Positions 3,671-43,557 of a DNA stretch of 64,000 nt are shown one piece after another. The DNA lies in the IMG/VR virus record IMGVR_UViG_3300047160_031539, positions 9,633 through 73,632 of that record, one strand, 5' to 3'. The position numbers and the translations under genes were made by a program. Positions within the stretch are counted from its first letter, which is position 1, and each line of letters starts with the position of its first letter. The DNA is from a virus (taxonomy: Duplodnaviria > Caudoviricetes). The notes beneath the pieces were generated by a model. The model saw only the letters and a list, made by a program, of their open reading frames with translations, did no database searches and was not told the origin of the DNA.

Positions 3671-3749
3671 CAGTAGGGCGAACGTCAGTGGGGCGAACGT
3701 CAGTGGGGCGAACGTCAGTGGGGCGAACGTCAGTGGGGCGAACGTCAGT
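3671..3749. repeat. Intergenic tandem array of 5 x 15-bp direct repeats
   Basis: CAGT(A/G)GGGCGAACGT at 3671, 3686, 3701, 3716 and 3731, plus a partial CAGT. Confidence 0.95.
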
Positions 3750-4569
3750 TCTGGCTCGGCACGGGCTCGGGGAACGACTCCAGGTGCGTCATGACCCTCT
3801 TATATCCCGCCAGGCTCAGGGAGGCGGGGGTGGCGTCCTCAGCCAGGGCCAGGTGCGAGCGGACGACCTCCCACTTCCAGCCGAGGAGCTTCAGGCGGTC
3901 GTTGACGCGGGCGGTCTTGTTCTGGGCGATAAACTCCTTGGGGGAGATGTTCCTCTTGGAGGCCAAGAGGAGCGAGCCGGGGGCGAAAATCCCCTCGGCC
4001 GACCAGGCGGCGTCCAACTCCTCCAGGGTGGGCTTGCGTACCCCCGAGCCCTGCCTGGGGGCCTCCTGCCTGGGGGCCTCCTGCCTGGGGGCCTCCTGCC
4101 TGGGGGCCCCCTGTTTAGGCCTGGGCAGGGCGGAAGCCGGCAGGGTCGGCAGGCGGGTGAACTGCCGCTTCTGCGGGTCGTAATCGCACCACGCCTGCGG
4201 CAGCCGGTACAGGTAGCGGCCGATGCCGAACTTGACCGCTGTACGCTTCAGGGCGTCACTAAAGGCGGCCTTGCGGCGGTCCCCCTCGTCGGGCTGCTCA
4301 GACGGGCCGCCCACGTCCGTCTTGGTAATCCACTCCTCCCCCAGCCGCAGCCGCAAGCGGCAGATCACCGAGCCGTCCGACAGGCACTGGTACTCGTCCT
4401 GCCAGCCGGTCACGCCCATCACGTCGTCCAGCCGGTCCTGGATCACCCGGGCGTCCACGTAGGGCAAAGCCAGGGCACGGTTGCCCGAGACGACAGCCGG
4501 CTTGAACTTCACCTCCTTGGGGTTGAACGGCTCCGCCAGCATCTCCTGCAGTTCCTCAACGGTCGGCAC
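3745..4569 (-). CDS. Rad52/Rad22-family (Sak-like) single-strand annealing protein
   Basis: PYVDARVIQDRLDDVMGVTGWQ and KAAFSDALKRTAVKFGIGRYLY. Contains a 4 x 15-bp in-frame repeat (4050-4109, QEAPR-type). Confidence 0.9.
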   Translation of the reverse strand: MPTVEELQEMLAEPFNPKEVKFKPAVVSGNRALALPYVDARVIQDRLDDVMGVTGWQDEYQCLSDGSVICRLRLRLGEEWITKTDVGGPSEQPDEGDRRKAAFSDALKRTAVKFGIGRYLYRLPQAWCDYDPQKRQFTRLPTLPASALPRPKQGAPRQEAPRQEAPRQEAPRQGSGVRKPTLEELDAAWSAEGIFAPGSLLLASKRNISPKEFIAQNKTARVNDRLKLLGWKWEVVRSHLALAEDATPASLSLAGYKRVMTHLESFPEPVPSQN

Positions 4570-22281: not shown

Positions 22282-22627
22282 TCGCCACCTCCTTTAACTC
22301 CTGCAGGCCGACCTCGAAGTCGGTCAACTCCTCCGTCCAGAACGACCACTCCCAGACTTGCCCCCCGTGCCACTTCACGCAGCACAGGCTCACCACCCTC
22401 GCCGGCCCCCCGTCCAGGCCGTACAGCACTTTTCCCGTCTCCCCGAGGGCCGCCTTGACCGGGTCCACGCGGTCAGCCGGCATGTCAAACAGCACCGTCC
22501 AGTTCCGACGCGAACGGCCAGAAAAAACCACCGGGGAGTCGCCGTAACACATCGGCCCGGCGGTCAGCTGCAGCCGCAGGCCGCCGTACTCGACGAATTG
22601 CGGGCCCTTCTTCTTCACCCGAACCAC
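22274..22627 (-). CDS. Hypothetical protein
   Basis: 117-aa ORF overlapping both neighbours. Confidence 0.55.
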   Translation of the reverse strand: MVRVKKKGPQFVEYGGLRLQLTAGPMCYGDSPVVFSGRSRRNWTVLFDMPADRVDPVKAALGETGKVLYGLDGGPARVVSLCCVKWHGGQVWEWSFWTEELTDFEVGLQELKEVASG

Positions 22628-24513
22628 CCCCTCGCCTCCATCAGGGCGATGACCTCGTCCGGCTTCTCCCGGAGGTACAGGAGCGGCAGATAGTTGCCCT
22701 TGGACGTGAACGCCGGGTTGGTCCAGGCCGAGGCCATCCGCTCGTCGAAGGCGACCAGCCGCTTGGGGTGAATGCTGTTACCGTCGGGCCGCCACCACAT
22801 CGCCACCCGCTTGCCCAGGTAGTGGGCGAAGATCCCCAGACCGCACTGGTAGCTGACGAAGAACTGGGACCGCCGCAGGAGGGCCATCGTCTCGCCAATC
22901 TCAAATTTCCCGATCAGGTTGTAACAGGAGACCCCGGCCTCCTCCATGCCCCTCTTGACGTAGTGGTCCCAGTAGGACATGTCGTAAGGGGCCCCGACCA
23001 GGACGATCTTGAGGTCGCGGGCGGAAACGGACTTGGCCAGCGTGACCCAGTCCTTGGGCTCCCACAGGAAGCCGCGGTTGTGGCCTTCGTCCACATTTCC
23101 CGATTCGGGGCCCAAATAGAAAGCGACGAAAGGAGAGAGGGCCCGGCCGACCTCGTCGCCCCGCTCGGTGCCCGACCAGTCGAAGTCGTCCACCACGGAC
23201 CAGTCGATCGGGTGCTCGGGCAGCCACTCCTCCAGCCGCCGGCCGTCCTCCAGCACCTTGTTGGGCACCAGGTAGTGAAAGCCGTTGTGCTCGCCGTCGG
23301 ACAGGTAACGCCAGCGACCCTTTTCGTCGTTCTTCTTCTCGTCCTCCTCGTAGCCGGCGTCCAGGACGGGCACGTCCAGGACTGTGGCGGACCTGACGAA
23401 GGGGAAGCGTTTGACGAAGGGGATGGCCCGGCGGTCGATCTCCCGGCGCATGTCGCCGCACAGGACCAGGTCGATGGCCCCCCCGGCGGCCACGGCCTTG
23501 ATCTTGTGCAGGACCCAGAGGATGTCGCCGATGCCGTTGGGCACGGCGTAGGCCACTCCGGCACCCTTGGGCCGCTCGAAGCGGAGGACCTCCGAGAGCC
23601 ACTCGCGGGCGGCGTCCACCATGCCGCCGTCGCCCCGGTAGACGCGGAAGCGGTAGTGGGCCTCGAAGAAGGAGGCCACCTGGTTGTCCTCGCAGGGCGG
23701 CACCGAACGCCAGTCGGCCGGGACCAGGTGCATCGTCGTCGGGCACGGGTCGTGGAACTGCACCGGGCTGTGGTCCCTCCAGATGGAGAGGGAGGGCGTG
23801 CCGGTCGCACTGGCACACTTGCCGGGGCCCGAGTCGATACCCACGAACGCCTCGGCCATGTGGATCAGGGCCGCGATCGTCTCGGCGTCGCCGCTGCCGA
23901 ACTCCCCCCAGATGTCGCCCTTGCCGACCGGGGGACGGAAGACTCGCTTGTTGTCGGCCAGGGGGGAGCGGCCGTCCCAGTCCAGGAGGACCGGCACCCG
24001 GCCGGCGGCCAGGGCGTGGTCGATCAGCACCTTGGCCTGCCAGTGGGACAGGTTCTTCTTCCAGGTCGAGGTGTTGCCCTCGTAGTGGATGACGAAGGCG
24101 TTGTACTTCTCCGCCGCGACCTCCCTGCAGCCGATGGACCGCAGGTAGTTGGCCACCTTCCCCCGGCAGTCGCCCGACAGCTTGATCTCGTAGCGGGCCA
24201 GCTCCCGGTCCCAGCCCAGGCCAAAGACCTCCTGCAGGCAGTTGGTGATCTTGGAGTTGGGCCGGTCGCCGAAGTGCAGGTAGTTCTCGTACCAGCCGAT
24301 GTCGGCAACCGTGTCGTAGAGCTTGTGCGGTGGCTCGGGCTCCTGGTCGTGCCACACGGCGTTGCAGAAGCCGCGGAGGGCCGAGTGCTTGCCCCGGCCG
24401 CAGCGGACGTCGATCTGCCAGTCGGGGCGGTGCTTTTTCAGGTGCTTGAGCACCACAACGAACTGCACCACGTCGCCCAGCCCGTGGCTGAAACGCAGGA
24501 GAATCTTGGCCAC
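22615..24513 (-). CDS. Tandem two-domain GT9 (ADP-heptose:heptosyltransferase-like) glycosyltransferase
   Basis: Two GT9 N-motifs (FSHGLGDVV; VPNGIGDILW) and two C-motifs (AEAFVGIDSGPGK; SQFFVSYQCGLG). Confidence 0.85.
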   Translation of the reverse strand: MAKILLRFSHGLGDVVQFVVVLKHLKKHRPDWQIDVRCGRGKHSALRGFCNAVWHDQEPEPPHKLYDTVADIGWYENYLHFGDRPNSKITNCLQEVFGLGWDRELARYEIKLSGDCRGKVANYLRSIGCREVAAEKYNAFVIHYEGNTSTWKKNLSHWQAKVLIDHALAAGRVPVLLDWDGRSPLADNKRVFRPPVGKGDIWGEFGSGDAETIAALIHMAEAFVGIDSGPGKCASATGTPSLSIWRDHSPVQFHDPCPTTMHLVPADWRSVPPCEDNQVASFFEAHYRFRVYRGDGGMVDAAREWLSEVLRFERPKGAGVAYAVPNGIGDILWVLHKIKAVAAGGAIDLVLCGDMRREIDRRAIPFVKRFPFVRSATVLDVPVLDAGYEEDEKKNDEKGRWRYLSDGEHNGFHYLVPNKVLEDGRRLEEWLPEHPIDWSVVDDFDWSGTERGDEVGRALSPFVAFYLGPESGNVDEGHNRGFLWEPKDWVTLAKSVSARDLKIVLVGAPYDMSYWDHYVKRGMEEAGVSCYNLIGKFEIGETMALLRRSQFFVSYQCGLGIFAHYLGKRVAMWWRPDGNSIHPKRLVAFDERMASAWTNPAFTSKGNYLPLLYLREKPDEVIALMEARGWFG

Positions 24514-35029: not shown

Positions 35030-35518
35030 TTATACCCTGAGTTTCCCAAGGCTTTCCAGCCCCCAGTCGGCCACGGGGAGGCCTCCCGCGCGGACCTCGG
35101 CGAGGAACCGCTTGGCGGCGTCCAGCCCGCAGACCAAACAGACGGGGACCCCGAACCGGCGGTAGAGGGCCAGTTGCTCCCGGACCTGCCAACGGGCCTT
35201 ACGCGGCAGCACGTCTGGCCGTTTGATCTCCACAATCAGCAGCAGCCTCCTTTGCTTGCCGCTGCCCCCGAAGACCGCTAGGTCTACCCGGGCCGCCCCG
35301 GAGCCCTTACACCTCACCTCCCCTCGGGCCATGTACCCCATCTCCCGGAGGTGCCGGTAGACGTAAGCCTGGATCTCGAACTCGGTCGGCTTCGCCGCCC
35401 ACCGCAGTTCCAGCCGGACCTCCTCTCCCGCGGCCAGTCGTGCCTTCAGTTCCCTCGTCTTCCTCGCGAACGCCATCCCGCCCCTGGGGGGCTTCCTCAC
35501 ACTCTTCGGGACCTTCAC
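35030..35518 (-). CDS. PD-(D/E)xK (restriction-endonuclease-fold) nuclease
   Basis: EFEIQAYVYRHL...GEV...RVDLAVF...LIVEIKRP...Q; GAGGAGG RBS. Confidence 0.72.
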   Translation of the reverse strand: MKVPKSVRKPPRGGMAFARKTRELKARLAAGEEVRLELRWAAKPTEFEIQAYVYRHLREMGYMARGEVRCKGSGAARVDLAVFGGSGKQRRLLLIVEIKRPDVLPRKARWQVREQLALYRRFGVPVCLVCGLDAAKRFLAEVRAGGLPVADWGLESLGKLRV

Positions 35519-35842
35519 ACTTCCCTCCTCCCCCGCAATGCTTAGGGGCGCCGGTGAGGGCGCAGACTGCACCCTGGGAGGTGCAGTCGCGTGCCGCGGG
35601 TATGCCGTATGAGTCACGCTTTTTGCAGCTACTTGCGGCTTTCCTGGGGTGCCAGTGCCGGCCCGTGATGCCCACCCCGCCTCGTCGCCGCTTTCGCCCG
35701 GCGGATCAACCTGGTCGAAAGGCTTGCCCACAACTCGCGGCGCTCGACCGCTCGGCATGTGGCGTTGGCCGGCTACTCTTGCCATTCAGGGGCCTATGTG
35801 CTAGAAAAGAGTCGCCGGGTAGCAACGGCAAACCTCTTCTCT

Positions 35843-35880
35843 GGACAGGCCGGGAGTGCTAGCCCGGCCTGTCCTCTTTT
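35843..35880 (+). other. Anti-repeat/repeat hairpin followed by a U-rich tract
   Basis: GGACAGGCCGGG (35843-35854) is the reverse complement of CCCGGCCTGTCC in both array repeats. Confidence 0.7.
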
Positions 35881-35972
35881 ATACCCCCCCCTTTTACTCG
35901 GCGGGGGACACGGCGTGGTGCTTGATGGTCAGGAAAGCCCGGCCTGTCCTCTTTTATACCCCTCCCTTTTAC
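35861..35972. CRISPR. CRISPR-like mini-array (repeat-spacer-repeat) with a self-matching spacer; no cas genes seen
   Basis: 37-bp repeats at 35861-35897 and 35936-35972 (1 mismatch). The 38-nt spacer 35898-35935 is identical to 39256-39293. Confidence 0.55.
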
Positions 35973-35993
35973 CGTCACCGGAGCTTTTGATCA

Positions 35994-36248
35994 ATGCCAG
36001 ACTGTCAACTCGACACCCTGCCGGACGAGGACGACGCCCTCAAGCGATTCTTCCTGGCGGACGTGCGGGACTCAAGTCCCGCCCGCGTCGGGAAGGCCCC
36101 CCGGCAACTCGCCGGGGCCGCGATCATGCTCCTGAACGCGGCCTTCGGGCTCTCCCGGCCCACCCGGGCGGCCCTGCACGCCAGCGTGGAGGCCATCCTG
36201 TGGACCCTGGACACCGAGTATGGACTTCGGCCGCCGACCTTACCATAA
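35994..36248 (+). CDS. Hypothetical protein
   Basis: 84-aa plus-strand ORF starting 21 nt after the mini-array and followed by terminators. Confidence 0.55.
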   Translation: MPDCQLDTLPDEDDALKRFFLADVRDSSPARVGKAPRQLAGAAIMLLNAAFGLSRPTRAALHASVEAILWTLDTEYGLRPPTLP

Positions 36249-36306
36249 TGGGGCCGTTGGGAAGCCAGGACGTGTGCCGCTGGTTGCGGCACACAACTCC
36301 CTGAGT

Positions 36307-36350
36307 AACTCCCCCGGCCGGCGGGTAAGCGGTCGGGGGAGTTCTCTTTT
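36307..36350 (+). terminator. Intrinsic terminator-like hairpin 1
   Basis: AACTCCCCCGGCCG/CGGTCGGGGGAGTT stem followed by CTCTTTT. Confidence 0.65.
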
Positions 36351-36428
36351 GGCGGCGACCGTGGTACGATTTTCCTGGTTGGTCTTCTGTAGTGCCCCCC
36401 GGCTCGTTGCCGGGGAAGGCTGCGCATG

Positions 36429-36470
36429 ACTCCCCCGGACGACTCCAGGCGTCCGGGGGAGTTTTCCTTT
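36429..36470 (+). terminator. Intrinsic terminator-like hairpin 2
   Basis: ACTCCCCCGGACG/CGTCCGGGGGAGT stem followed by TTTCCTTT. Confidence 0.7.
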
Positions 36471-36494
36471 CAGGTGGCGCAATTGCGCCACCTG
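36471..36494. repeat. 24-bp palindrome, copy 10 (perfect)
   Basis: Between terminator 2 and a candidate plus-strand promoter. Confidence 0.95.
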
Positions 36495-36496
36495 AC

Positions 36497-36524
36497 TTGC
36501 GTTTTCTCGCCCGAAAGGGATAAT
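36497..36524 (+). promoter_or_regulatory. Candidate sigma70 promoter for DHH-WYL
   Basis: TTGCGT, 16 nt, GATAAT. Confidence 0.4.
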
Positions 36525-36648
36525 GGCCGCCGGAAGGAACGGAAATTCCTTCCTCCTCACTCCCGACGCCCGAAACGTCGGGACCATCCTGCGGACGGCG
36601 GGTGCCGGTCTCCTTTCCCGGCACCCGCCGTTTTTCCAAGGAGTCGCC

Positions 36649-37518
36649 GTGTCCAAACCCCTCGTCCTCTTCCACGCCTCGTGCGCCGACGGCTTCTGTG
36701 CCGCCTGGATCGCCCACCGGGCCCTGGGAGACTGGGCCGACTACGTGGCCGTTAACTACGGCCAGGAGCCGCCCGACGTGACCGGCAGGCCCGTCTACAT
36801 CCTCGATTTCAGCTACAAGCGAGACGTTCTGGACGGGATGCTGCAAAAAGCTCAAAGCATCGTCCTGCTCGACCACCACAAGACCGCCGAGGCCGAACTG
36901 CGGCCTTTCGTGCTGGCCGGCGAGGATAGGCCGCGAAACCTGACCGTCTTCTTCGACCTGTCCAAGTCCGGGGGCCGCCTGGCCTGGGAGTACTTCTTCC
37001 CCGGCAAGCCGGCCCCGTGGCTGGTGGACTACACCGAGGACCGCGACCTGTGGCGGTGGGCACTGCCCGACTCCAGGGCCATCAGTGCCTACATCGCCTC
37101 CCACCCGTTTGAGTTCTGGCGGTGGGACGTGTGGGGGGCGTGCCCGATCGGGGACGCACCCTGGCGTGGCTGGATTCTGGAGGGGGAGGCCATCCTCCGC
37201 TACCAAGAGAAGGTCGTGAGCGAGCAGGCCAAGACCGCCGCCGAGGTCGAGATCGGCGGCTACAAGGTTCTGGCCGCCAACGCCGCCGAGGTCGAGATCG
37301 GCGGCTACAAGGTTCTGGCCGTCAACGCCACCCTGCTCACCAGTGAGATCGCCGGGAAGCTGGCCGAGGGCAGGCCGTTCGGGGCGACCTTCTTCGTCCG
37401 CAAGGACGGCAAGAAGGTCTGGTCGTTGCGGTCCCGGGAGGGCGGCATCGACGTGTCGGAAGTGGCCAAGGCCCTGGGCGGCGGCGGCCACCGGGACGCC
37501 GCCGGCTTTGTGGAGTAA
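36649..37518 (+). CDS. DHH/DHHA1-family phosphoesterase
   Basis: LFHASCADGFCAA, YILDFS, LLDHHKT, WSLRS, LGGGGHRDAAGF; AAGGAG RBS. Contains a 45-bp tandem duplication (37237-37326). Confidence 0.9.
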   Translation: MSKPLVLFHASCADGFCAAWIAHRALGDWADYVAVNYGQEPPDVTGRPVYILDFSYKRDVLDGMLQKAQSIVLLDHHKTAEAELRPFVLAGEDRPRNLTVFFDLSKSGGRLAWEYFFPGKPAPWLVDYTEDRDLWRWALPDSRAISAYIASHPFEFWRWDVWGACPIGDAPWRGWILEGEAILRYQEKVVSEQAKTAAEVEIGGYKVLAANAAEVEIGGYKVLAVNATLLTSEIAGKLAEGRPFGATFFVRKDGKKVWSLRSREGGIDVSEVAKALGGGGHRDAAGFVE

Positions 37519-37522
37519 CCTC

Positions 37523-37777
37523 GTGGACACGGTCACGTTCCGCTACAAAAACCACCGCGGCGAGGAGGCCGTCCGGCGGGTGCGGCCGATCCGGGTCTGG
37601 TTCGGCTCGACGGCCTTCCACCCCGGGCCGGGCTGGCTCCTGGAGGCCTGGGACCTCGACCGGCAGGCCACCCGGGACTTCGCCATGTCCAACATGCTCA
37701 GCGGGTGGGAGCGAATCCTCCCTCAGTGCCCGGCCAAGGAACTGGATGAGGCCACCGGGCAGCAGGCCGTGGCGTAG
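37523..37777 (+). CDS. Stand-alone WYL-domain protein
   Basis: VTFRYKNHRGEEAVRRVRPIRVWFG...WLLEAWDLDRQATRDFAM. Confidence 0.82.
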   Translation: MDTVTFRYKNHRGEEAVRRVRPIRVWFGSTAFHPGPGWLLEAWDLDRQATRDFAMSNMLSGWERILPQCPAKELDEATGQQAVA

Positions 37778-38046
37778 AGGGGCAGGCCCTGCCAGGAGCC
37801 GACCAGGCGGCAGTCGTAGACGCCCTGGGAGACCAGGGGCAGCGAGTTGGCCTCGAAGACGTAGGCCTGCTCCCGGTCCCTGAGTGGCGGGGTCCCCGGG
37901 CACTGTTCGACCTGGCAGGGGTAGTAGGTGACGGGGAAGACGACGGAGCCGGGCCCCGTCACCCGGACCAGCTGGGACAGTGCCGGGTAGAGGGGGTGTT
38001 GGTTAAGCCCCAGGAAGGGCGGGGCCAGGTTGTCGGACTGGTCCAT
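37723..38046 (-). CDS. Stand-alone copy of the shared fibre N-terminal domain
   Basis: PPFLG...LYP.L.QLVRVTG...RDRE.AYVFE.N...RLVG...GLPLYA.ACC. Confidence 0.7.
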   Translation of the reverse strand: MDQSDNLAPPFLGLNQHPLYPALSQLVRVTGPGSVVFPVTYYPCQVEQCPGTPPLRDREQAYVFEANSLPLVSQGVYDCRLVGSWQGLPLYATACCPVASSSSLAGH

Positions 38047-38050
38047 CGGC

Positions 38051-39106
38051 TCACCCCGGCCACGAGACGATAACCCGGCCGTCGGCCCCGTTGGCACCGA
38101 ACGGGATGCCCACGACGCCACTGCCGCCCCCGCCGCCGCCGGGGGCTACCCCGTTGACCCCGAAGCCGTTGCTGCCGCCGCCGGCACCGCCGGCACCCCC
38201 CGCGTCGGGCCCCGGGCCGCCGGCGCCGGCCGTGCCGCCACCGGACGGGCCCGTGGTGCCGTTGCCGCCGGGGCCGCCGGGGCCCCCCGCACCGGCGGCA
38301 CCTCCTCCGCCACCCCCGGCAGCCGTCGCCCCTGGCCCGACAGTGCCGCCCGTGCCACCGCTGTTCTTGAGTGTGCCAATGCTTGCGGACGCTTGCCCGC
38401 CCTGGCCGCCGTTGTGGCCGCCGCCTGTCCCGCCCTTGGCCAGCACGGTGAGGTTGCTCACAAACCACGAGTCCTGGCCGAGGGCCCCGAAAGGCCGCCC
38501 GCCGCTCCCGCCGCAGCCCACGTAGCCCGAAACGGCAACGCCCGGGGTTACGACGATTGCACCGAGGGAGGCGTAGGCTCCGCCGCCGCCGCCGCCGCCG
38601 TTCCCGGACGCACCGAGCGACGTGGTTCCCTGGGCCCCGCCGCCGCCGGCCCCCGTACAGCGGGCCTTCACCAAGGTAACGCCGGCCGGGGGGATGAAGG
38701 AAAAATTGCCGCAGACGGTGAAGGTCTGGCTGGTGAGGGTGGCCGAGGAGGCGGCCGCGGACGAGGCGACCGCCGAAGAGGTCGGGGAAAACGACACGGA
38801 GGACGGGACGGCCTTCCGGCAGCAGGCGACGGCGTAGAGGGGCAGGCCGCCGAAGCTGCCCACCAGGCGGCCGTCGTAGATCGCCCCACCCAGGGGCTGG
38901 CTGTTGGGCTCGAAGACGTAGGCCGGCTCGCGGTCGCGGACGGCCAGGTTGCCGGTGTACTGCTGGGTCATGCAGGGGTAGATCGGGAAGGGCTGGCCCA
39001 GGAGGGCCGGCCCGGTGACCCGGAGCAGTTGGGGCAGTTCGGGGTAGAGGGGGTGCTCGTTCTGGCCGAGGAAGGGCGACACCGTGTTGGTGCTGACCTC
39101 AGCCAC
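38051..39106 (-). CDS. Gly-rich tail-fibre-like protein with the shared N-terminal domain
   Basis: Shared domain, Ser linker, FSFIPPAGVTLVKARCTGAGGGG and Gly-rich repeats ending GADGRVIVSW. Confidence 0.75.
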   Translation of the reverse strand: MAEVSTNTVSPFLGQNEHPLYPELPQLLRVTGPALLGQPFPIYPCMTQQYTGNLAVRDREPAYVFEPNSQPLGGAIYDGRLVGSFGGLPLYAVACCRKAVPSSVSFSPTSSAVASSAAASSATLTSQTFTVCGNFSFIPPAGVTLVKARCTGAGGGGAQGTTSLGASGNGGGGGGGAYASLGAIVVTPGVAVSGYVGCGGSGGRPFGALGQDSWFVSNLTVLAKGGTGGGHNGGQGGQASASIGTLKNSGGTGGTVGPGATAAGGGGGGAAGAGGPGGPGGNGTTGPSGGGTAGAGGPGPDAGGAGGAGGGSNGFGVNGVAPGGGGGGSGVVGIPFGANGADGRVIVSWPG

Positions 39107-39296
39107 GGGCGATTTCTCTCATGTCGGTATCGGACTGACGCTGGGCCAGTAAGAGCAGGCAGGTCGGGCAGGTAACGTTCTCGTCGTTGATACAGCACTC
39201 GCCGTCCGTCACCGACTTGCCGCAGACGGCCTTCCGTGGGGCCGGCACGGACCACTCGGCGGGGGACACGGCGTGGTGCTTGATGGTCAGGAACAA
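39099..39296 (-). CDS. His/Cys Zn-finger miniprotein; codons 2-14 match the mini-array spacer
   Basis: HH...AVCGK...VTCPTCL...DMREIARG. Confidence 0.65.
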   Translation of the reverse strand: MFLTIKHHAVSPAEWSVPAPRKAVCGKSVTDGECCINDENVTCPTCLLLLAQRQSDTDMREIARG

Positions 39297-39299
39297 GGG

Positions 39300-39512
39300 T
39301 CACCCCTTCGCGATGGCCTCCAGGTCCCGGACAAGTAAAGCCCGCCTGCAGGCCGGACAGGTGGCGTCCTCGGGGGCTGTCGTCAGCCGAACGGGCCCCA
39401 CCCACTTGCCACAGACCGCGGGCAACGTCCCGTCCCCCGAGCCCATTAAACAGGGTTGGTAAACGTGGACCCAGAGCCAGTCGGCCGGGGGCGCAACCGG
39501 GTCGTAGTTCAC
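39300..39512 (-). CDS. His/Cys Zn-finger miniprotein
   Basis: VH...AVCGK...ATCPAC...RDLEAIAKG. Confidence 0.65.
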   Translation of the reverse strand: MNYDPVAPPADWLWVHVYQPCLMGSGDGTLPAVCGKWVGPVRLTTAPEDATCPACRRALLVRDLEAIAKG

Positions 39513-39516
39513 GATC

Positions 39517-39720
39517 TCACCCCTTCGCGACCTCGGCCAGGTCCCGCCTGTCCAGGAAGGCCAGGCAGTCCGGGCAGGTGCAGTCGTCCCGTTCACTTGC
39601 CAGGTCCCAGCCGCGGACCTGCTTGCCACACAGGGCGACGATTGGGGTTCCCATAGTCTGCGGTCGCTCCACGGGCCGGCCCAGGTGGCGGACCCGGGAA
39701 CGTGTGGTGTCGTCGGGCAC
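39517..39720 (-). CDS. His/Cys Zn-finger miniprotein
   Basis: RH...ALCGK...CTCPDCL...RDLAEVAKG. Confidence 0.65.
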   Translation of the reverse strand: MPDDTTRSRVRHLGRPVERPQTMGTPIVALCGKQVRGWDLASERDDCTCPDCLAFLDRRDLAEVAKG

Positions 39721-41797: not shown

Positions 41798-42029
41798 CGG
41801 TCCTCCTTGCGGAGCCCCTTGCGGAGCCCCTTGCGGGCTCAAAAAGTTCCCCGGCCGCCACCTCGGCCGGCGAGGCTTCCGACAGGGCGATCACGTAGGG
41901 GATCACGCTCCGGTAGCGGTGGACGCCCGTGGGGGGCGGGTCCAGGACCAGCAGGAACGGCTGGCCGTACTCCGTACACATCCGGCGGGCCAGGTCCCTC
42001 AGGTACTGCTCGGTGTCATTCGGTGCCAT
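41781..42029 (-). CDS. Hypothetical protein
   Basis: MAPNDTEQYLRDLARRMC...; overlaps both neighbours. Confidence 0.5.
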   Translation of the reverse strand: MAPNDTEQYLRDLARRMCTEYGQPFLLVLDPPPTGVHRYRSVIPYVIALSEASPAEVAAGELFEPARGSARGSARRTDVTRA

Positions 42030-43557
42030 GACCCAGAATCTCCACCGCCCGGGTGCCCTTCTGGCCGCGGACCCCAAAGTGGCCCAGGAGCAGGTCCACC
42101 GCCGTCGCCGCACTCACGAGGGCCGCGTTCAGCGTGCTGTCGAACAGGTAGTCCCCCACCACGAACAGCCCGGGGTGCCCCTCGGCTTCGGGCTGGTGCT
42201 CGCCCCGAAGCTCCCCGACCGGCCAGCCGCCCGGCTGGGCGTTGACCGAGCCGATGAAGCGGTCCACCTGGGCCTCGGCCAGCGTTTCCTGCGCCCCTGC
42301 CCTCTGGAAGTCCGGCAGGGATTCTACCAACCGCTCGACGATCTCGGTATCCGTGTCGTTGCCCGAACACTGGATGAGCGCGCTGCCGCCGGCCAGGAGC
42401 ACCGACAGGCAGTGGCCCGGCCCACAGCCCCAGCGTTTATCCTCGTCGTAGAAACAGCACCCGCCCCCGAGGTCTTGCATCCAGAACTCGCCCGGCATGC
42501 CCATCTGGGCCCACCAGTTCTCCCGAAAGTTCATGGAGACCCGCAGGTAGTGGGCCGGCAGGTCGTAATGGGCCAAGAGGCGGTGGACGGCCTCGTTCAG
42601 GTTGCGGTTGAGGAAGGCCACCTGCTCCAGCCAGTGGTTGGGCACGGCCAGGACCACGGCGTCGAAGCGGCCTCCCAGGTCTTGCCCGTTGTTGCGCCAG
42701 CCGACGAACTGCTGGCCGTTCTTGCTCCTGTCGATCCAGCGGGCCCGGTGGCAGACCCGCACGTCCGCGTCGATCTGCTGGGCCAGGCACAGGGAGACCT
42801 GCTCGATGCCGCCCCGGACGTGGTAAAGCTGCATGTACCGGTCGTTGTCGAGCAAGACGTTCTTGATCCCGTTCAGGCCGTTACACGTTCTCGGTTCGGT
42901 CGCCAGGTCGGAGTGACAGGCCGTCTCAATGTAGCGGCAGGCCACCGGGTCGTGATCGACCTCCTCCCGCAGGCACTCGCGGAACGTGCGGTTGGCCCAG
43001 GGGTGCTCGTTGTCCGGCTGCCAGCGGGCCGCGTACCTCTCCAGGGGCATCAGGTCGGCACAGCGTTTGTGGAAGTGCTCGATGCGCTTGCGGGTGTCGT
43101 GGCCGTGAAACTCTTCCACCTCGTCAAGGTTGCGCAGGCAGCGGCCGTCCAGGACGACACCGCCCCCGCTCATGTTGACGGTCTCCAGGCCGAGGTCTTC
43201 CTCGATCAGGATCCGCAAGGGGTCGGGCTTGCCCCCCTCCCCGGGGAGGTACTCGTACAACTCGGCCACGCCGCTCTCAAAGGGCGTGCCGTCACTGAAG
43301 CAGTCCGTCATCAGCTTGCCGCCCAGGCGGTCGGACGCCTCCAGCAGCGTCACGTCGGCCCCGGGGAAGCGTTGGTTGAGCAGGTAGGCCGTAAAGAGCC
43401 CGCCGGGGCCGCCCCCCACGACGGCCACGGAAGGGCCGCCCTTTGGCACCCTGGGGGGAGGCCCCGGCGGCTCCTGCCGGACCCACCGGCCCGAGCCGGC
43501 GTAAGCCCAGCCCGGCCCCGGCGGCTCGCTGCCATAACACTCCTCGGCCACGGCCAC
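42016..43557 (-). CDS. FAD-dependent oxidoreductase (flavin amine oxidase family)
   Basis: VAVVGGGPGG (Rossmann), TLLEASDRLGGK, C-terminal LFVVGDY...TLNAALVSA. Confidence 0.88.
   Translation of the reverse strand: MAVAEECYGSEPPGPGWAYAGSGRWVRQEPPGPPPRVPKGGPSVAVVGGGPGGLFTAYLLNQRFPGADVTLLEASDRLGGKLMTDCFSDGTPFESGVAELYEYLPGEGGKPDPLRILIEEDLGLETVNMSGGGVVLDGRCLRNLDEVEEFHGHDTRKRIEHFHKRCADLMPLERYAARWQPDNEHPWANRTFRECLREEVDHDPVACRYIETACHSDLATEPRTCNGLNGIKNVLLDNDRYMQLYHVRGGIEQVSLCLAQQIDADVRVCHRARWIDRSKNGQQFVGWRNNGQDLGGRFDAVVLAVPNHWLEQVAFLNRNLNEAVHRLLAHYDLPAHYLRVSMNFRENWWAQMGMPGEFWMQDLGGGCCFYDEDKRWGCGPGHCLSVLLAGGSALIQCSGNDTDTEIVERLVESLPDFQRAGAQETLAEAQVDRFIGSVNAQPGGWPVGELRGEHQPEAEGHPGLFVVGDYLFDSTLNAALVSAATAVDLLLGHFGVRGQKGTRAVEILGHGTE

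Follow-up and report, generated by a model that had tools for sequence, protein, structure and literature searches.

What could place, in the genome of a phage, a unit laid out like a minimal CRISPR array, with a single spacer that is a perfect copy of one of the phage's own genes? The question is raised by a short intergenic locus (35843-35972) in the 64,000-nucleotide (nt) stretch of DNA analysed here, hereafter the window, which is part of a 73.6-kb IMG/VR virus record of an uncultured soil phage (IMGVR_UViG_3300047160_031539; CheckV completeness ~86%, 68% GC); all positions are those of the window. A first interpretation made from the letters and their open reading frames (ORFs), hereafter the sequence-only reading, had taken the unit for a phage-built guide or antisense RNA that regulates the phage's own gene. 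Our results bear out the architecture that it described and suggest a different meaning, since the unit could be the footprint of one integration event of the Cas1-Cas2 type at a non-CRISPR site, in the phage genome itself. We favour this explanation over the others considered below and hold it tentatively.

The repeat-insert-repeat unit and the source of its insert

Two direct repeats of 37 nt each, R1 (35861-35897) and R2 (35936-35972), flank an insert of 38 nt (35898-35935), exactly as the sequence-only reading had claimed. The repeats differ at one position, repeat position 28, which is C in R1 (35888) and T in R2 (35963), and their longest common exact stretch is 27 nt. The insert is an exact copy of 39256-39293, and the claimed extension of this identity to 40 nt when the preceding AC is counted (35896-35935 = 39254-39293) holds as well. 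Both the CRISPR-like geometry of the unit and the perfect self-identity of its insert are real. Leaving aside tandem repeats and a family of 24-nt palindromes described below, no other dispersed exact repeat in the genome is as long as the 40-nt match. No further copy of R1 or R2 is found in the window or in the 73.6-kb record, and two repeat matches were obtained in 0 of 100 shuffles. A genome-wide scan for X-Y-X layouts with a period of 52-100 nt returned the repeat-insert-repeat unit as its sole result, with 0 in block shuffles. With its 37-38-37 layout the unit agrees with the definition of an array as at least two direct repeats of 23-55 nt around a unique spacer of similar size.

The contig is metagenome-assembled and the feature involves repeats, two circumstances that would favour an assembly artefact or a chimeric junction. 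In this regard, read-length Logan unitigs (151 nt) from three soil metagenome runs (X2, X3 and X4) were compared with the locus. The X3 unitig (35853-36003) carries R1, the insert, R2 and sequence beyond them with 0 differences, and the X2 unitig (35785-35935) carries R1 and the insert, also with 0 differences; the X4 unitig (35798-35948), which likewise holds R1 and the insert, shows one difference, a population variant in R1 (35884 C>T). Contigs from four runs, at ~2x depth, at which an empty-site allele could be missed, show the filled site only and none skips the 75 nt; the target region 39228-39391 is without cover in the runs examined. The k-mer length of Logan is 31, and the assembly graph is unbranched at the unit because the 27-nt exact stretch common to R1 and R2 falls below it. 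A check by reads had been proposed together with the sequence-only reading, and the unitigs span the unit and reveal no chimeric junction. Since single unitigs from three soil runs carry the unit, the artefact explanation is effectively refuted and its probability is negligible.

The insert was taken from the start of a gene encoding a Zn-ribbon miniprotein. This gene, C (39099-39296), belongs with A (39517-39720) and B (39300-39512) to a set of tandem paralogues on the minus strand, with products of 65-70 amino acid residues (aa) that follow the common pattern P-x-(D/E)-W ... VCGK ... CPxC ... IAKG-COOH. The start codon of gene C is TTG (39296-39294); an AAGGGG Shine-Dalgarno sequence, which overlaps the end of gene B, precedes it by 9 nt, and the copied 38 nt start at the first base past this codon. 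The residues AVSPAEW encoded by the copied tract have a counterpart, VAPPADW, in paralogue B. Because this N-terminal motif is also present in B, gene C is the source and the intergenic copy is derived, and sequence comparison shows the direction of copying to be from gene to intergenic stretch. On the minus strand, the 5' flank of the donor is TTG (39296-39294), the very start codon of gene C, and on the plus strand it is CAC, of which AC is also the end of the repeat. The 5'-TTG flank that had been noticed in the opposite orientation and likened to a TTN-type protospacer-adjacent motif (PAM) is thus present; of random 38-mers from this genome (68% GC), 5.4% would have 5'-TTN beside them in one orientation or the other. 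TTN-type PAMs accompany 36-37-nt repeats in several type I subtypes.

Each Zn-ribbon gene starts 3-8 nt past the previous stop, with its Shine-Dalgarno sequence inside the conserved C-terminal codons, and the paralogues sit within a block of tail-region genes. A Pfam search assigned no family to the miniproteins, giving a sub-threshold match to DUF3039 only. Two other accounts of the copied tract were rejected. A remnant of an old paralogue would not be expected to be 100% identical when the paralogues themselves are ~76-83% alike, and taking the two 40-bp copies as attL and attR of a 3.4-kb inserted element leaves the 37-bp duplication around one copy unexplained.

The left border of the unit coincides with a strong hairpin. 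Its arms, 35843-35854 and 35863-35874, pair perfectly (12 bp, GC-rich, 8-nt loop; -28.1 kcal/mol, z = -5.7) and are followed by TCTTTTATA, so that the whole scores as an intrinsic terminator. The sequence-only reading had described the 12 nt upstream of R1 as an anti-repeat; the pairing (with 35863-35874) is confirmed, but the element is simply the 5' arm of this terminator-like hairpin. Neither does it resemble the anti-repeat of a trans-activating CRISPR RNA (tracrRNA) of type II systems, which is carried by a separate RNA, pairs with most of the repeat and is accompanied by Cas9, being instead a 12-nt complement on the same strand, 6 nt upstream of R1. The switch of pairing from R1 to R2 that had been proposed is kinetically unlikely, as hairpin and U-tract would form on the plus strand before the insert is transcribed. 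The first 14 nt of the repeat include the 3' arm of the hairpin, and the 5' arm lies outside the repeat and only upstream of R1. On its own, the repeat is unstructured in either orientation (0 to -1.5 kcal/mol). It is thus no self-contained unit, its pairing partner lying in the flank, and a boundary that cuts across a terminator hairpin gives it the appearance of duplicated local sequence and not of an imported repeat. The duplicated tract is, in addition, locally AT-rich, with a GC content in the lowest 1-11% of the genome's 40-mers.

Integration or replication error as possible origins of the unit

To our knowledge, no process other than staggered integration by Cas1-Cas2 is known to leave 23-55 bp of target duplicated on both sides of an insert of 26-50 bp; the target duplications left by transposases and casposases measure 2-15 bp. 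The insert of 38 bp and the duplication of 37 bp are both within the usual sizes of CRISPR spacers and repeats. Homology between insert and target amounts to 2 nt (AC) at one junction and 0 nt at the other, and this near-absence makes integration a better fit than homology-driven recombination. Furthermore, the left cut falls inside an inverted repeat.

The integration that we favour could have proceeded as follows. A Cas1-Cas2-like integrase of the host would have captured a 38-bp phage fragment from the start of gene C, next to the 5'-TTG, and would have inserted it by two staggered attacks 37 bp apart in a stretch richer in AT, the start of which lies within the loop of the cruciform-capable terminator hairpin. 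Gap repair would then have duplicated 37 bp of ordinary local sequence, giving rise to the 37-38-37 layout, and the product, a 'neo-CRISPR' with one spacer, would remain where a block of plus-strand genes has its upstream edge, as a scar that is neutral or nearly so. Both the enzyme and the neutrality of the scar are what we infer. The transcript is probably neither processed nor loaded by Cas proteins, because the duplicated sequence matches the repeat of no detectable CRISPR system, and the perfect self-match may be tolerated because the duplicated sequence would be no repeat recognised by a Cas effector. Regarding the involvement of CRISPR machinery, which the sequence-only reading had invoked, adaptation enzymes may then be credited with the origin of the unit, but not with its use as a guide.

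In line with this notion, off-array integration creating new repeat-spacer-repeat units has been described in E. coli (Nivala, Shipman and Church 2018, in the accounts given by the articles that cite it, 10.1101/148544, PMC6698737 and PMC7054753), and a preference of E. coli Cas1-Cas2 in vitro, on CRISPR-less plasmids, for sites beside a cruciform-prone inverted repeat is summarised in PMC5389526. As far as those accounts go, the phage unit has in common with the neo-CRISPRs of E. coli a spacer-sized insert, a repeat-length duplication of ordinary, non-CRISPR target sequence, junctions without homology (here 2 nt, AC, and 0 nt), a site by an inverted repeat and an AT-richer tract, and an insert drawn from DNA in the cell. 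It differs from what they describe in that here a virus genome received the virus's own DNA, whereas there the target was a bacterial chromosome or plasmid, and in that it comes from a natural population and not from Cas1-Cas2 overproduction.

The duplicated sequence was also looked for elsewhere. Exact repeat cores of 20-22 nt gave no true match in IMG/VR, JGI metagenomes or GTDB species genomes; the single core match in a JGI metagenome lies in an unrelated AT-rich ATPase gene and is due to chance. The full R1 repeat found nothing in plasmids by blastn, and its match among phages, 17 nt in a Salmonella phage tailspike gene (E = 6), is again a chance one. No Rfam CRISPR-DR family matches the repeat at E <= 10, and Rfam models run over the whole window at the gathering threshold returned nothing credible; a match to NrsZ (20.7 bits against a threshold of 76.9 bits) reflects the repeated hairpin-like layout only. 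In the collections searched, the repeat thus belongs to no family found in arrays of cas-bearing genomes. The earlier statement that no cas gene is visible agrees with our searches, in which models of Cas1, Cas2, Cas4 and TnpB-type proteins (TnpB/Cas12f nuclease-bridge) had no match in the record; Cas9 was not searched for.

By its sequence, the phage itself is an orphan in the same collections. Exact-protein look-ups led to no other contig, and neither the insert nor the 24-nt palindrome is present in other IMG/VR contigs. The gene to the left of the unit has no homologue but itself, no relatives were found there for the neighbouring proteins of 431 and 776 aa, and a GTDB search with an amine-oxidase gene of the phage gave no relative. 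Homologues of the DHH phosphoesterase encoded to the right of the unit reach 62% identity and occur in non-syntenic phages. Taxa drawn from the protein atlas are mixed, with a weak lean to Planctomycetota.

Several points weigh against the integration that we propose. It presupposes a host Cas1-Cas2 pair that works with 37-nt repeats, 38-nt spacers and a TTN PAM. The scans with repeat cores need an exact match and would overlook a host repeat with any change inside the core, and in a record that is ~86% complete a cas or other effector gene could sit in the missing part. No relative or allele with an empty site was found, and the ancestral state with a single copy of the repeated sequence is a reconstruction. 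Finally, the TTG that flanks the donor doubles as the start codon of gene C and was noticed post hoc.

An error of replication by template switching, of the kind called fork stalling and template switching (FoSTeS) or microhomology-mediated break-induced replication (MMBIR), would account for the unit with no CRISPR enzyme at all and would make its CRISPR-like sizes a coincidence. A fork would stall at the hairpin, the nascent end ...TTTTAC would jump 3.4 kb to the AC at 39254-39255, 38 nt would be copied, and synthesis would return upstream to 35861, leaving a duplication with a templated insert. The strong hairpin placed exactly at the left border, the 2-nt microhomology at the first junction and the uniqueness of the event in the genome all agree with such a sequence of steps. 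The second junction, however, lacks homology, both lengths fall in the narrow range of CRISPR repeats and spacers and are nearly equal, and the donor has a TTN flank, which chance provides in 5.4% of cases. We regard template switching as unlikely on balance, and as the best placed of the alternatives to Cas1-Cas2-type integration.

If an integration of the Cas1-Cas2 type did occur, the locus would document, in nature, that CRISPR adaptation machinery wrote into the genome of a virus and not into a host array, and it would illustrate how ordinary sequence can give rise to a virus-borne mini-array with one spacer. Phage genomes would then carry datable footprints of encounters with adaptation-active hosts, in which the length of the duplication reports the host repeat length and the donor flank reports the PAM. 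If the enzyme was not Cas1-Cas2, high-GC soil phages would be subject to an undescribed process whose insertions are CRISPR-sized and come with long duplications of the target.

Possible guide and antisense functions

The unit may also be viewed as a working virus-borne mini-CRISPR array, or guide, with repeats that would belong to the CRISPR-Cas system of the host or to another effector, its CRISPR RNA (crRNA) repressing gene C or attacking sibling phages. Besides the repeat-spacer-repeat architecture of typical sizes, this idea finds some ground on the minus strand, where the protospacer has a 5'-TTG PAM in the style of types I/V ahead of it and the last repeat is followed by two hairpins and a U-tail, and in the nearby WYL-domain gene, which matches the PADLOC CRISPR-associated WYL model (E = 4.9e-9). 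Virus-borne mini-arrays are known, moreover, and their spacers tend to target regions near the array (PMC6858448). The repeat, however, is found in no array or genome searched, Rfam CRISPR-DR families included, and its boundary passes through a hairpin of which one arm lies in the flank. With a DNA-cleaving system, so perfect a self-match next to a PAM-like flank would amount to suicide, the record is devoid of Cas1, Cas2, Cas4 and TnpB-type matches, and neither the insert nor the phage has an IMG/VR relative that could be the target. No RNA run contains the locus, an outcome that carries no information on expression. A functional mini-array appears to us rather improbable.

The known virus-borne mini-arrays (Medvedeva et al. 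2019, PMC6858448) resemble the unit in that a virus lacking cas genes holds repeats with a single spacer or a few between them, and in that the spacer matches a virus of the same kind, in a region close to the array. They use, in contrast, the recognisable repeat and leader of the host, whereas the repeat studied here is unmatched in the collections searched. Their own cognate locus, as in SPV1 and SPV2, is mutated or deleted and so escapes targeting (PMC6858448), whereas the self-match of the phage unit is 38/38 (40/40 with AC) and has a 5'-TTG flank. A second comparison is offered by RNA anti-CRISPRs (Racrs) and solitary repeat units (Camara-Wilpert et al. 2023, PMC10651486), which share with our locus a repeat-sized intergenic element of a phage with candidate accessory or anti-defence genes as neighbours; a solitary repeat unit might offer a host Cas1-Cas2 a natural place to integrate. 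Racrs, however, mimic a known host repeat including its hairpin, and this repeat is unstructured alone and unmatched.

An antisense element that acts independently of Cas proteins has about the same low standing, a shade below that of the mini-array. Whatever the origin of the unit, RNA of the plus-strand insert would pair with the coding sequence of gene C over its first 38-40 nt, the insert being transcribed by read-through of the hairpin or as part of a long 5' untranslated region of the 84-aa gene to its right, and expression of the plus-strand block would thereby be coupled to repression of the late Zn-ribbon genes and those downstream. Plus-strand RNA is indeed perfectly complementary to the mRNA directly past the start codon, transcripts of the 84-aa ORF starting upstream would include the insert, as only 21 nt separate R2 from its ATG, and three soil samples hold the unit. 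On the other hand, the plus strand upstream shows no promoter-like site, hairpin and U-tract should stop plus-strand transcripts ahead of the insert, and no relatives were found in which the unit could be seen to be conserved. An incidental antisense effect is possible.

The proposal closest to the sequence-only reading is that of a self-directed guide RNA gene, its repeat-flanked RNA carrying 38 nt from the start of gene C, working with another effector or with a Cas complex of the host whose repeat family is undescribed, and timing or silencing gene C and the downstream tail-region genes. If true, it would be CRISPR-type autoregulation invented by a virus, and we consider it less likely still than the mini-array or the antisense element. 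Its nearest relatives would be CreA/CreR-type RNAs, the small CRISPR/Cas-associated RNA (scaRNA) and the long tracrRNA, all of which feature a repeat-like/spacer-like/repeat-like unit aimed at a gene of the same genome. These RNAs sit in cas loci, have degenerate cognate repeats and pair partially with a promoter, which avoids cleavage; here, in contrast, the match is perfect over 38 nt of coding sequence, and there is no cas locus and no similarity between repeats. A guide of the omega-RNA or bridge-RNA type was also rejected, with no TnpB-type match and no recombinase gene noticed.

Together, these findings offer nothing in support of a phage-built guide or antisense regulator of the phage's own gene, the repeat being unmatched and unstructured, cas matches lacking and the self-match perfect. 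The label 'CRISPR-like' is right for the geometry of the unit and probably for its origin, and for function it lacks support. For annotation, the locus is a warning that repeat-spacer-repeat geometry with a perfect self-match is no evidence of a working CRISPR guide.

Genomic setting and other features of the phage

Table 1. Position and strand of the unit, its donor and the surrounding features (window coordinates).
Feature	Position	Strand	Remarks
Second hairpin with U-rich tail, terminator-like	35802-35842	-	Back to back with the main hairpin
Main hairpin: terminator-like, cruciform-capable inverted repeat	35843-35883	+	12-bp stem, 8-nt loop, TCTTTTATA; the duplication begins inside the loop
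Non-coding stretch, ~515 nt	35477-35993		No codon periodicity by frame-specific GC; the unit lies at its right end
R1, left copy of the 37-bp duplication	35861-35897		Last 2 nt of the hairpin loop, 3' arm, T-rich tract, C-run
Insert ('spacer'), 38 nt	35898-35935		Identical to 39256-39293
R2, right copy of the 37-bp duplication	35936-35972		Repeat position 28 is T, not C; ends 21 nt ahead of the start of the 84-aa ORF
84-aa ORF	35994-36248	+	First gene of the plus-strand block; GGAG at 35980-35983
DHH/DHHA1 phosphoesterase	36523 or ~36650 to 37518	+	Domain match
Small WYL-domain protein	ends at 37777	+	WYL domain match
Zn-ribbon miniprotein gene C, 65 codons	39099-39296	-	Last of three tandem paralogues
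Donor/protospacer	39256-39293	-	Codons 2-13 and 2 nt of codon 14 of gene C

According to frame-specific GC analysis (window 1-64000), nearly all genes of the phage lie on the minus strand, and the sole clear plus-strand block (35994-37777) is the one beside the unit, with the 84-aa ORF, the DHH phosphoesterase and the WYL protein. Both the DHH and the WYL domain had been recognised by the sequence-only reading and are confirmed here; no usable look-alike of the 84-aa protein was found, and a comparison of the neighbouring genes with PADLOC gave no defence-system match except for the bare WYL domain. To the left, the earlier 251-aa ORF is superseded by a database gene call of 148 aa (35030-35476, leftward), so that ~515 nt are left non-coding. 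Its description as a PD-(D/E)xK nuclease had been drawn solely from a D...EIK motif, and Pfam, PADLOC and PDB sequence searches gave nothing; the predicted fold of the product is of low confidence (pLDDT, the predicted local distance difference test, 59) and nothing meaningful came from its Foldseek matches. The intergenic stretch, the plus strand upstream of the insert included, shows no sigma-70-like promoter, and the repeat is no recurrent promoter-like motif of this genome.

The plus-strand block looks like an inverted accessory (moron-like) module, and its 3' end overlaps by 55 nt the 3' end of the minus-strand gene 37723-38121. Within it, a sigma-70-like promoter match (36221-36249) is located between the 84-aa ORF and the DHH gene region, and a terminator-like hairpin with a 14-bp stem (36428-36463) is followed by a copy of the 24-nt palindrome (36470-36495). 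Since DHH homologues cover 87% of the 331-aa ORF, the real start of this gene is probably near 36650. A near-perfect in-frame tandem repeat inside the DHH gene (37236-37329) consists of a 45-nt unit present x2.1, and two others, at 3671-3749 and 4050-4113, consist of a 15-nt unit present x5.3 and x4.3, respectively.

The palindromic element just mentioned has the core GGTGGCGCAATTGCGCCACC and usually forms a 24-nt perfect palindrome, CAGGTGGCGCAATTGCGCCACCTG. The 73.6-kb genome holds 20 copies, found in the window at 979, 7396, 9986, 15048, 19432, 21949, 24783, 27620, 33671, 36473, 41508, 46797, 49123, 53543, 57627, 60481 and 62235, with three further copies to the left of it. Most are intergenic and stand directly upstream of the GGAGG ribosome-binding site of the next minus-strand gene, and the element may serve as an operator specific to this phage, as a hairpin in RNA processing or stability, or as a family of terminators.

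Among the neighbouring tail-region genes, those for a 132-aa protein and for a glycine-rich-domain protein of 351 aa have ~270 nt in common at 72-79% identity (37833-38032 with 38890-39089 and 37750-37820 with 38810-38880), which corresponds to a duplicated domain. Lastly, two auxiliary genes unusual for a phage are present, a flavin amine oxidase (PF01593, E = 7e-23; 42016-43557) within the structural region and, at 22615-24513, a protein of 632 aa in which a domain of glycosyltransferase family 9 (heptosyltransferase) is recognised.

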